Source: a virus (taxonomy: Duplodnaviria > Heunggongvirae > Uroviricota > Caudoviricetes). Taken from it: 39,290 nt of DNA. Of the stretch, positions 13,529 through 17,584 are shown one piece after another (position 1 is the stretch's first letter; the number at the start of each line of letters is the position of its first letter). The notes beneath the pieces are model-generated. The model was given only the letters and a program-made list of their open reading frames with translations. It was not told the origin of the DNA and did no database searches. Location of the stretch: the IMG/VR virus record IMGVR_UViG_2579778601_000004; one strand, 5' to 3'. Both the position numbers and the translations under genes were made by a program.

Positions 13529-13556
13529 GGGGAGGGCTTAGCCCTCCCTCTTTTTA
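13529..13556. terminator. Bidirectional intrinsic terminator between the convergent adhesin and esterase genes
   Basis: GGGGAGGGC-TTA-GCCCTCCC hairpin flanked by an A-tract upstream and TCTTTTT downstream. Confidence 0.6.
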
Positions 13557-13828
13557 CAGGTTAGCGTTTGGGTTTTGTTGTTGGGGAGCTGTTTTTATAG
13601 GCGCTCCCAGGTTTTTAGTAAACCACTCAACGACTCTGTTTATAATAATTGGCTGATACCATGTCTTATCGCCATGCTCGGCCCCTTCTACCAGCACGTA
13701 CTCAGCGTTATCACCGTTCTTCTTCAACATCCTGAATAGTTTGGCGCTTTGCTCAGGTGAAACCAGAGTGTCTTTGCTACCATGCATAATAAGAAATGGT
13801 AAGCGTCAACGGAGCACCGTATTGACGC

Positions 13829-15442
13829 TTATTTATTGGTGAGTACTACGTTCCATGGCAGGAGTTCGTCAACTCGGTTGGAAGGCCATTCCGGCAGTAC
13901 GCTCAGGATATGGCGCAGATACGCTTCCGGATCGATACCGTTCAGACGGCAGGTGCCGATCAGCCCGTACAACAGTGCTCCACGCTCGCCGCCGTGATCG
14001 CTGCCAAAGAACATAAAGTTTTTCTTTCCGAGACAGACTGCACGAAGCGCTCTTTCCGCAGCATTATTATCCGCCTCCGCCAGACCGTCATCACTGTAAT
14101 AACAGAGGGCATCCCACTGATTCAGTACATAGCTGAACGCTTCGCCCAGTCTGGATTTTTTCGACAGCGTACCATTCTTCTCCACCATCCATTCATGCAG
14201 CGACGTCAGTAACACTTTGCTTCGCTGCTGCCTGACGGCAAGACGCTCTGACTCCGGTAATCCCCGTATTTCATCCTCGATGGCGTACAGTTCACTGATT
14301 CGCTTCAGGGCTTCTTCTGCCGTCGCACTTTTGCTGCTGATGTATACATCGTGGATTTTTCGCCGGGCATGGGCCCAGCACGCAACTTCTGTCAGTGCAC
14401 CACCTTCACGTTCTGCACTGAACAACCTGTCGTAACCTGTGAACGCATCCGCCTGCAGGATACCCCGGAAGGGGCGGAGGTGTTGCTCCGGGTGTTTCCC
14501 CTGCCGGTTCGGCGAGTACGCGAACCAGACCGCTGGAGGAGATGACGAACCCACATTGCGATCATCCCGGACATACGTCCAGATACGCCCTGTTTTCGCC
14601 TTTTTCTGACCCGGTGCCAGTACCTTTACCGGTGTGTCATCAGTGTGAACCTTGCGGGTGTTCATTACATAACGGTACAGGGCATCATTCACCGGTGTCA
14701 TTAACTGGCAGCACGCGTCAACCCAGTTGGAGAGTAAGGCCCGGCTCAGTTCGACACCCTGGCGGGCAAAGATTTCACTCTGACGATACAGTGGCAGATG
14801 TTCGCAGTATTTTCCCGTTAACACGCGGGCAAGTAATCCGGGGCCCGCGATACCACGCTCTATCGGGCGGGACGGCGCCGGTGCTTCAACAATACAGTCA
14901 CATTTTGTACAGGCTTTTTTTACCCGTTCTGTGCGGATCACTTTCAGGGCACTGCTCACCAGTTCCAGCTGTTCAGCGCTGACTTCCCCCAGATAATCCA
15001 GCTCACCGCCACACTCCGGGCAACAGCTTTCTTCTGGCTCCAGGCGGTGTATTTCACGGGGAAGGTGTGCCGGTAACGGACGACGATGGCGCGACTGTCG
15101 CAACTGGCGGGGAACCTGAGGATCGTCTTCCCGCCCACTGTAACGATCGCTGTCCTGTTCACGTTGTTTCAGCAGAGCCTCAGCCAGTTCAACTTCACGA
15201 CGCAGTTTTTCAGAACGGGTACCGAACAGCATCCGGCGCAGTTTTTCTATCTGAGCCCGCAGATGTTCTATTTCCCGTTCATCTTCTTCGATCTTTTCTT
15301 CGGCACGTGTCAGTGCAGAGCGCAGGAAGGCTTCCGTCTCTTCAACCAGACTCAGTTGCTGGTCTTTCTGACGGAGGGCTTCAGCCTGCTCAGAGAGCAA
15401 CCTTTCCAGCTCTGCGATGCGAATGAGGTATTTCTGACTCAT
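13829..15442 (-). CDS. tnpC: IS66-family transposase TnpC (537 aa)
   Basis: Start MSQKYLIRIAELERLL and N-terminal coiled-coil/leucine-zipper-like region typical of IS66 TnpC; size typical. Confidence 0.85.
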   Translation of the reverse strand: MSQKYLIRIAELERLLSEQAEALRQKDQQLSLVEETEAFLRSALTRAEEKIEEDEREIEHLRAQIEKLRRMLFGTRSEKLRREVELAEALLKQREQDSDRYSGREDDPQVPRQLRQSRHRRPLPAHLPREIHRLEPEESCCPECGGELDYLGEVSAEQLELVSSALKVIRTERVKKACTKCDCIVEAPAPSRPIERGIAGPGLLARVLTGKYCEHLPLYRQSEIFARQGVELSRALLSNWVDACCQLMTPVNDALYRYVMNTRKVHTDDTPVKVLAPGQKKAKTGRIWTYVRDDRNVGSSSPPAVWFAYSPNRQGKHPEQHLRPFRGILQADAFTGYDRLFSAEREGGALTEVACWAHARRKIHDVYISSKSATAEEALKRISELYAIEDEIRGLPESERLAVRQQRSKVLLTSLHEWMVEKNGTLSKKSRLGEAFSYVLNQWDALCYYSDDGLAEADNNAAERALRAVCLGKKNFMFFGSDHGGERGALLYGLIGTCRLNGIDPEAYLRHILSVLPEWPSNRVDELLPWNVVLTNK

Positions 15443-15472
15443 GACCGTTTTTATAATGCGGTCAGGAGTTTT

Positions 15473-15823
15473 TTACAACATTGTCAGTGAGTTACGGCTG
15501 GATGTTTTTGGCTGACGCCAGTCCAGCTTATCGAGGAGCATTGCCAGTTGCGAGCGGGTAATGGATACCTTGCCGTCACGTACCGCAGGCCAGATAAACT
15601 GGCCTTCCTCCAGGCGTTTGGTGAACAGGCACAGACCATCAGCATCAGCCCAAAGAATTTTGACGGTGTCACCCCGTCGGCCACGGAAGATAAACAGGTG
15701 ACCGGAGAAGGGATTATCATTCAGCACATGTTGTACCTGTTCTCCCAGTCCGTTGAAGGATTTACGCATATCGGTAACGCCGGCAACGAGCCAGATACGG
15801 GTACCTGATGGGAGTGAGATCAT
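15473..15823 (-). CDS. tnpB: IS66-family accessory protein TnpB (Orf2), 116 aa
   Basis: MISLPSGTRIWLVAGVTDMRKSFNGL... recognised as IS66 Orf2; overlaps tnpA by 4 bp. Confidence 0.8.
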   Translation of the reverse strand: MISLPSGTRIWLVAGVTDMRKSFNGLGEQVQHVLNDNPFSGHLFIFRGRRGDTVKILWADADGLCLFTKRLEEGQFIWPAVRDGKVSITRSQLAMLLDKLDWRQPKTSSRNSLTML

Positions 15824-16245
15824 CTTCCCCTCCCGGTCAGTTCACGGATCAACACTGTGAGCAGCTCTGGCGATGGATTTTCCAGCGTCATGTTACCGTG
15901 ACGGAATTCCACCTTGCAGGAACTGGCACTGACTCTGGTCTGAGTGGAAGTGGATAAAGACGGCGCAATGGCCGCCACAGGTTCTTTCTGCTCATCCGGC
16001 GTTATTTCTACAGGTAATAATTCAACGCCAGTGTCAGAAGAGGTCGTTACCGGAAGACGCCGCGAAACACGCCCTTCGTTCTGCCAGAGCCTGAGCCATT
16101 TGAAAATAACATTATCATTGACGCCATTTTCACGTGCAATCTGTGCAACACAAGCTCCAGGTTGTGATGCCAGTTCCACCATACGAAGTTTGAATTCATT
16201 CGAATAGTTTTTACGAGGTTCTTTTCGCCAGTCCTGTAATTCCAT
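15820..16245 (-). CDS. tnpA: IS66-family accessory protein TnpA (Orf1), 141 aa
   Basis: HTH-containing small protein (ASQPGACVAQIARENGVNDNVIFKWLRLW) first in the IS66 three-gene set. Confidence 0.8.
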   Translation of the reverse strand: MELQDWRKEPRKNYSNEFKLRMVELASQPGACVAQIARENGVNDNVIFKWLRLWQNEGRVSRRLPVTTSSDTGVELLPVEITPDEQKEPVAAIAPSLSTSTQTRVSASSCKVEFRHGNMTLENPSPELLTVLIRELTGRGR

Positions 16246-17584
16246 ACTTAGATGTCCGTCTATATCAGATGGGCGTCTAAGTTACCAATTCTCGTCTGAT
16301 GGCTACATACGGCGGTCAGTTTACGCTTACAAGAAATGGGGGTTTTACTCCTTTCATATGTCCGATTGGACTGGCGTTTAGCGCTTTTTCTTTTGACGCT
16401 GTGATGGGGGCTCCCGCAAAATTTCTGAATGCAGGGCCATTGATCATTAAGGCTTCGGTTACGGCAGGAGAGCGATGAACCTCCTGCACTGATTCAGGGA
16501 ACCCCTCGCCAATATTCAACAAGTCAGAAATCCCATAAAGTGTGGCAACTGCCTGAACATCTGAGGATTGCTGAAGAAAGTCACCTTTATCAAAGGTTTT
16601 GTCACCATTTGTAGTTCCCATCATCTGGGCAAGCCATCCACCGGCAGAGTCACCCAGAACTCCGATTCTTTGAGGATCAATCCCATAATTGCTGGCATGC
16701 TCTCTCAGGTAACGTATTGCAGCTTTTCCATCCTCAACTGGTGCTGGAAATGTATCAGGAATTGTTCTGTATTCTACAGCGGCCACAACAAAACCAGCTT
16801 CTGCCAGAGCCATTCTCATTTCAATAAATTTGTCATGTTCAGAAGACATGAATCCGCCGCCGGGATAATAAATAATGGCTGGTTTTAAATCATTTGTTCG
16901 CGGGACAAGAACTGACATGTGAAGCTGTCTGACAGAACGAGTTCCTTTTATCTGGGAATAAACAACATCACCAATGAGATCGACCTGGTTTCTGGTCGGT
17001 GAAACACTAATGATATCTGCACCCGGGGTGTAACCAGGAAGATTAGTCTGGACAGGTGTTGCACAACTCCCGACCGACATGGCCATTGACATACCATACA
17101 ATAGTGTTGCAGATGATAATATCTTGTTAATTTTCATGTTTTACATGCCTTGACTTATCGGATGAAATTCTCTTACTAAATTTAACGGCAGTTTAATAGC
17201 CGTACAACTCGTGGTAGCCAGGGAAATATCCCAGTCGTGGTTAAGGTTGTACTTGACGGCTATTATTTCAACAATGCTTAAAGTGAGAGCTTAAGGTTAT
17301 GCGTATGTTTTACAGTCCGAGTAGATTCTGACCAATAGCTTCTTTGTATAATTCTGTCAGAAATAAATCTTGGCTTGCATGAAGTTTGAGACCTTATCTT
17401 GTTTGATTATGAATAATCAATTCGCCATAATTGTATCACCGGAGCCTGAACAACTCCGGTGACTTCTGCGCTAAACGGGGACGTTTATGCGCACACACAA
17501 TCCAAACTCTCTTCTCCCTTCACAGATGCAGAAATGCACCTGCGTTTTTTTGCATCTAGCGTCTGACCTCTGTGGAGGTGAAGC

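Follow-up and report, generated by a model that had tools for sequence, protein, structure and literature searches.

Known copies of ISEc23 in RefSeq share a length of 2,532 bp, their sequence, the gene order tnpA-tnpB-tnpC, GTAAGCG-type repeats, and an 8-bp duplication, and members of the IS66 family are expected to end in inverted repeats that are imperfect, measure about 20-30 bp, and open with GTAAGCG. Esterases of the BD-FAE/Abhydrolase_3 kind, represented by 6nkf and, more distantly, by the carbohydrate acetyl-esterases 6xyc, 6tkx, and 6mly, belong to one fold family with a nucleophile elbow of the GDSAGG type, and the canonical oxyanion motif of family IV (hormone-sensitive-lipase-like) esterases is HGGG. 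The morons of lambdoid phages, such as bor/iss and lom, are self-contained cargo genes with their own terminator and a lower guanine-plus-cytosine (GC) content, inserted between phage modules. Here, we analysed a stretch of 39,290 nucleotides from a virus of the Caudoviricetes (IMG/VR record IMGVR_UViG_2579778601_000004), called the window below, in which the insertion sequence (IS) ISEc23 lies inside a gene for a predicted lipoprotein esterase carried by a lambdoid prophage. Almost certainly, ISEc23 transposed into this esterase gene and split it, and the neighbouring adhesin gene and putative terminator were left unaffected.

A script re-reading the window placed the inserted element at 13799-16330 (2,532 bp) and found AAGAAATG at both 13791-13798 and 16331-16338, the left and right copies of a perfect 8-bp target-site duplication. 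The preliminary description of the window had reported an IS66-family element with identical flanking 8-mers, and its coordinates proved exact for both; gene order and Pfam and NCBIfam models agree with the family, and the element can be named specifically as ISEc23. Identity between the two flanks stops at 8 bp, with not one further matching base on either side, and elsewhere in the window AAGAAATG occurs once more on the plus strand (21424) and once as its reverse complement (22479). The element starts with GTAAGCGTCAACGGAGCACCGTAT, and its other end reads as the reverse complement of GTAAGCGTAAACTGACCGCCGTAT; the imperfect terminal inverted repeats formed in this way agree at 20 of their first 24 positions and both open with GTAAGCGT.

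All three transposition genes of the element lie on the minus strand in the order tnpA-tnpB-tnpC, with open reading frames (ORFs) that are intact and identical to those of sister copies. The gene tnpC (13829..15442) encodes an IS66-family DDE transposase of 537 residues (RefSeq accession WP_000080195.1), recognized by Pfam DDE_Tnp_IS66 at 9e-98 and by NCBIfam NF033517 at 452 bits (cut-off 180), with further Pfam domains for the zinc finger (zf-IS66), the leucine zipper (LZ_Tnp_IS66), and IS66_C. The accessory protein TnpB (15473..15823, 116 residues) matches Pfam TnpB_IS66 at 1.1e-36 and NCBIfam NF033819 at 121 bits (cut-off 50), and the accessory helix-turn-helix protein TnpA (15820..16245, 141 residues), whose gene overlaps tnpB by 4 nt, matches Pfam HTH_Tnp_1 and NCBIfam NF047595 at 83 bits (cut-off 74). 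The full 2,532 bp are 100% identical to copies labelled "IS66-like element ISEc23 family" by RefSeq/PGAP, which served as the comparison sequences on which the name rests. Matches of at least 99% were found in more than 2,000 Escherichia coli records, and some match in 4,796 of the 5,426 complete E. coli genomes that made up the searched set. The element is therefore a complete, ordinary ISEc23 that shows no difference from the known element, and its location alone is particular to the source genome and to one other strain, 21964.

Deleting 13799-16338 leaves 1,044 nt, a multiple of three, which run on the minus strand from 17137 to 13554 and translate without a stop into ...GVKPPFL-IMHGSKDTLV... 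across the junction. The restored frame had been described as continuous and about 350 residues long; its continuity held, and its exact length is 347 residues. The features named for it are also present, namely a signal peptide, here seen to carry the lipobox SVGSC, PGGGF at residue 92, and GDSAGG at residue 162. A PROSITE PS51257-type pattern matches MKINKILSSATLLYGMSMAMSVGSC (residues 1-25) with Cys25 in the lipobox, suggesting that the esterase is a lipoprotein. The restored protein matches Pfam BD-FAE at 5.7e-45 (153.9 bits against a cut-off of 26.8) and Abhydrolase_3 at 81.3 bits (cut-off 25), and Pfam Peptidase_S9 aligns through its catalytic C-terminal part with the final 80 residues. 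None of the NCBIfam equivalog models reached its cut-off for the esterase, the best score being 83 bits against 700.

By sequence, the closest solved structure was 6nkf (lipase/esterase, Lip_vut4; 1.6e-37), followed by carbohydrate acetyl-esterases. The alignment with 6nkf pairs GDSAGG with GDSSGG (Ser164), HGSKD with HGDQD (Asp276), and AEHG with GAGHN (His308), and the nucleophile motif GxSxG takes the form GDSAG at residues 162-166. These aligned positions are those expected for the Ser-Asp-His triad of the alpha/beta-hydrolase fold, and the HGxxD...H pattern in the C-terminal part is similar to the one seen in S9-type serine hydrolases, so we infer from alignment and motif pattern that Ser164, Asp276, and His308 form the catalytic triad. 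Compared with its BD-FAE/Abhydrolase_3 relatives, the esterase of the window is phage-encoded, has a lipoprotein signal peptide, and carries PGGG instead of HGGG.

The duplicated AAGAAATG covers codons 267-269 of the esterase, and the gene now stands in two fragments on the minus strand. The 5' fragment (16339..17137) holds the signal peptide and lipobox, PGGGF, and GDSAGG, and as it stands belongs to an ORF at 16316-17137 in which 269 native residues are followed by VSVN and a stop contributed by the end of the IS (...PPFL-VSVN-stop). The 3' fragment (13554..13790, residues 270-347) starts inside the gene, lacks a signal peptide, and contains the putative catalytic Asp276 (HGSKD) and His308 (AEHG). 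Because the IS lies between Ser164 on one side and Asp276 and His308 on the other, the insertion very likely disables the esterase.

Alleles with an empty site are common. Together with its flanks, the excision product spans 1,661 bp and matches the uninterrupted locus of EC958, JJ1886, JJ1887, and hundreds more genomes, mostly of ST131, at 100% identity, and the empty site was recovered in one piece in 434 records, where the gene is annotated as "alpha/beta hydrolase" beside an "inverse autotransporter beta domain-containing protein". These intact alleles bear directly on the reading that the flanking 8-mers are coincidental, or that the IS lies in an old, decayed pseudogene and makes the reconstruction illusory. 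A random 8-mer match at two fixed positions has a probability of 4^-8 = 1.5e-5, the sequence left by excision carries no substitution over 1,661 bp, and all 19 ISEc23 copies that were mapped in related genomes have perfect 8-bp duplications, which differ in sequence. Coincidence or decay is thus exceedingly improbable, and was ruled out by the script re-reading together with the identity to intact alleles.

The filled site is rare. A 300-bp probe across the left junction gave a single 100% piece in one of the 5,426 complete genomes, that of strain 21964 (Germany), for which RefSeq records two partial alpha/beta-hydrolase pseudogenes around ISEc23, the 5' one "missing C-terminus" and the 3' one "missing N-terminus". 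The insertion had been taken as recent, and the same conclusion is reached here: the duplication is exact, the flanks are free of substitutions, the IS matches its sister copies base for base, and the distribution is very narrow, being limited to a single small sublineage of ST131. The event is of a known type and was caused by a known element, and the public annotation of the sister genome already records both the IS and the split gene.

The proposed course starts with a copy of ISEc23 transposing into codons 267-269 of the prophage lipoprotein esterase gene, where the IS66-family DDE transposase TnpC, together with TnpA and TnpB, would cut with a stagger of 8 bp at AAGAAATG, and gap repair would copy this 8-mer to both sides of the element. 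The gene now consists of two pseudogene pieces. Its 5' piece may still encode a lipoprotein-signal fragment of 269 native and 4 IS-encoded residues, which would keep the oxyanion-hole region and Ser164 without Asp276 and His308, so that no esterase activity is expected from it, and the 3' piece has neither its own promoter nor a signal peptide. No observation speaks against the structural reading. Some points limit other parts of this account. The catalytic Asp and His were assigned solely by alignment and motif pattern, and the oxyanion motif PGGGF (92-96) keeps the glycines but has Pro in place of the His of HGGG. The window and strain 21964 are also not base-identical, agreeing at 99.67% overall, with one mismatch before 37784 and 112 mismatches and 14 gaps within 37784-39290 (tail genes). 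Because the sequences diverge from 37784 onward, the source genome of the window is a close relative of strain 21964 that is separate from that record. The restriction of this difference to the tail-gene region suggests, as a separate observation, recombination among lambdoid tail modules.

Taken alone, the insertion represents a textbook IS inactivation of an accessory gene in one small ST131 branch and is of little consequence, although it could help to identify strains, and it offers a naturally esterase-null, adhesin-positive variant to those studying this prophage cargo. The clustering of independent ISEc23 insertions around it is of more general interest than the insertion itself and is the one point worth following.

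This clustering was surveyed with the restored 4,361 bp (11900-13798 joined to 16339-18800) as query, the best 60 matches all containing an IS. Among the approximately 506 genomes carrying the region, at least 17 distinct ISEc23 sites in both orientations fall within restored 12331-14131 (about 1.8 kb), equivalent to 12324-13798 and 16339-16671 of the window. With each site given as the last base of the left duplication in restored coordinates, six lie in the 3' 1.2 kb of the adhesin gene (12331, 12400, 12996, 13276, 13462, and 13487) and 11 in the esterase gene (13577, 13599, 13741, 13754, 13797, 13798, which is that of the window, 13806, 13822, 13831, 13955, and 14131). Every one of the 19 mapped copies has its own perfect duplication, and 18 are identical to the window copy at 2,532 of 2,532 positions, the copy in EC67 having 4 mismatches; such identity points to a young and active ISEc23 population. 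The junction matches, 66 in the opposite and 6 in the same orientation, sum to 72, and the census of ISEc23 sites is consistent with being nearly complete because this number equals the difference between 506 genomes (2.5-kb gap bridged) and 434 (one piece).

Two explanations for the repeated insertions were considered. The first is that the insertion in the window is not a neutral accident but one case of a regional hot spot, in which the transposase prefers DNA close to where the convergent adhesin and esterase genes end, so that the locus would be struck far more often than expected by chance, irrespective of what the gene does; we give this reading an even chance. It draws on the number of distinct sites in both orientations, 11 of them in the 1,044-bp esterase, and on their spacing, as 7 of these 11 lie inside 91 bp, for which simulation under uniform placement gave P of about 6e-4, or about 4e-3 without the window's own site. 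Strain 23753 carries ISEc23 at 13797, only 1 bp from the site in the window and in the opposite orientation, with the target-site duplication TAAGAAAT (13790-13797), and in strain AZ 191 the element uses the 8 bp directly adjoining the window's site, with the duplication GGGGTTTT (16339-16346). Two controls of equal size, 4,361 bp each, were free of ISEc23 among the genomes 100% identical over them: the portal/terminase region of the same prophage contained no IS at all, and a segment combining the O/P genes with 2.65 kb from the 5' part of the adhesin gene, which is just as AT-rich, contained one ISEc52. The load of ISEc23 is about 6-7 copies per genome, and about 3,000 copies placed independently and at random in 5 Mb would give about 1 expected insertion in 1.8 kb.

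A sequence basis for such a preference did not emerge. An ungapped scan of the restored window with both inverted repeats (16 and 26 nt) gave nothing above background near 13500-16700, so that an inverted-repeat-like target was rejected as the cause, and the duplicated 8-mers at the ISEc23 sites have no evident consensus. AT-richness was likewise rejected as a sufficient cause; the cluster has 56-58% AT in a 50-bp profile without a peak, and the adhesin 5' 2.65 kb is equally AT-rich and holds no ISEc23. These findings count against a hot spot, as do the counting of sites by position and the rate at which ISEc23 newly inserts across the genomes of ST131, which is an estimate only.

The second explanation is selection in ST131 for losing the esterase, or the adhesin/esterase cargo as a whole, with the window as one of several parallel losses. 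Three IS families interrupt the esterase independently, since besides the 11 ISEc23 sites there is an IS1 at 16756-16764 (9-bp overlap) in strain AVS0051 and an ISEc52 at 13655-13657 (3-bp overlap) in strain razor3. The adhesin is likewise interrupted in several genomes, and ISEc52 was also found at 12919-12921 in the 3' part of the adhesin gene, in its 5' part in strain 18044, and at about 13540 in the intergenic terminator in strain A1.S1.126. Against this, about 430 of the approximately 506 genomes keep an uninterrupted esterase whose DNA is 100% identical, and the disruptive insertions are all singletons with no sign of clonal success. The commonest insertion, at 13570-13577, is common to at least 58 genomes, presumably one clone, and swaps only the last few residues of the esterase to give a 343-residue variant (WP_029700859.1), in a C-terminal tail that is variable and differs in the phage homologue as well; this insertion probably leaves the enzyme functional, and it would be a useful marker of an ST131 lineage. 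Selection for loss of function would moreover allow the sites to spread along the gene instead of bunching in 91 bp, and the 5' two-thirds of the adhesin gene are without ISEc23. Selection is on this evidence an unlikely explanation.

Of the two, a target preference for this region is the more economical, but it is unproven. Selection leaves the adhesin 3' insertions, the benign 3'-terminal clone, and the tight clustering unexplained; if the esterase were selected against, neither the insertions towards the 3' end of the adhesin gene nor those at the very 3' end of the esterase gene would be predicted. We advance only tentatively, at slightly less than even chances, the fuller proposal that the approximately 1.8 kb around the convergent 3' ends are a genuine ISEc23 hot spot with a core of about 90 bp in the esterase, reflecting an IS66 target preference that has not previously been described and that could depend, for example, on local DNA structure or on the topology of convergent transcription; parallel selection for loss of the cargo would fit as well. 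If target choice is responsible, the poorly understood target selection of IS66 elements could be studied with these insertions as a natural data set and with a defined substrate of 2 kb; if selection is responsible, they would point to a cost of the adhesin/esterase cargo in ST131. The literature searched on ISEc23 in ST131, inverse autotransporters of ST131 prophages, the EC958 genome, and IS66 hot spots describes neither the esterase, nor the insertion, nor the hot spot.

The window belongs to a lambdoid prophage that is integrated next to icd. The gene order in strain 21964 runs from the integrase through excisionase, exo/bet/gam, repressors (including cI), O, P, the adhesin (plus strand), and the esterase (minus strand) to ybcN, ninE, ybcO, rusA, Q, lysis genes, iss, terminase, head and tail genes, and the chromosomal sitD, so that the esterase lies antisense between the replication gene P and the nin genes. 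The copy in EC958 at 1.27 Mb would correspond to the prophage between Phi2 and Phi4, as judged from the coordinates of these two prophages (PMC4134206). Uninterrupted esterase genes are also present in the isolated lambdoid phages 4A7 (gp57), Lambda_4C10, D2, 1W, 3W, Perceval, and PhiR47_2, with 98.3% protein identity along the full 347 residues (tblastn); five of the six amino-acid differences from the esterase of the window lie in the C-terminal tail. In phage 4A7 (NC_049946.1), the gene at 6437-7480 likewise runs antisense in the same place, just upstream of ybcN-ninE-ybcO-rusA, where it adjoins a recombinase and a QacE-like gene and the adhesin is absent.

The esterase had been called prophage cargo and assigned with the adhesin to one module. 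Its position in the lambdoid prophage at icd and the homologues at the same place in phages bear out the first of these claims, and the second needs correction, as the two genes are separable: because phage 4A7 has the esterase at the same position without the adhesin, the esterase is true phage cargo and its pairing with the adhesin a composite, not a fixed module. By its position inside the prophage, its deviant composition (GC of 44.9%, compared with 44.0% for the adhesin and 52.4% for the rest of the window), and its copies in free phages, the esterase fits a cargo gene, or moron, of lambdoid prophages as far as its sequence and context can tell. It differs from the bor/iss and lom morons in occupying the replication-nin interval instead of the late region.

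The adhesin (9252..13517, plus strand) is an inverse autotransporter of the intimin/invasin type with 1,421 residues, recognized by Pfam IAT_beta at 5.6e-101 and by Big_1 and Invasin_D3 repeats. Its ORF is intact, as the preliminary description had stated, and its accession, WP_022645049.1, is the same as in genomes with the empty site. A survey of E. coli inverse autotransporters makes no mention of a prophage-borne one (PMC6714894). Between the convergent adhesin and esterase genes, a GC-rich hairpin at 13529..13549 with a 9-bp stem and T-runs on both sides is untouched by the IS, and it is likely to serve both genes as a bidirectional terminator. Within the adhesin, 10561-11623 consists of three tandem 357-bp units (119 residues, one immunoglobulin-like repeat each) that are 98% identical, and such arrays are prone to copy-number change and assembly error.

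It was also considered whether the additional 2.5 kb would exceed a packaging limit of the lambda type, which found no support, as the prophage, measured with the IS between the integrase and the final phage gene ahead of sitD, comes to about 45 kb. The tail-fibre gene of the prophage in strain 21964 is already fragmentary. The same prophage also carries iss, a bor-like increased-serum-survival lipoprotein gene and known virulence-associated moron, at 21255-21548 on the minus strand, just after the lysis genes.

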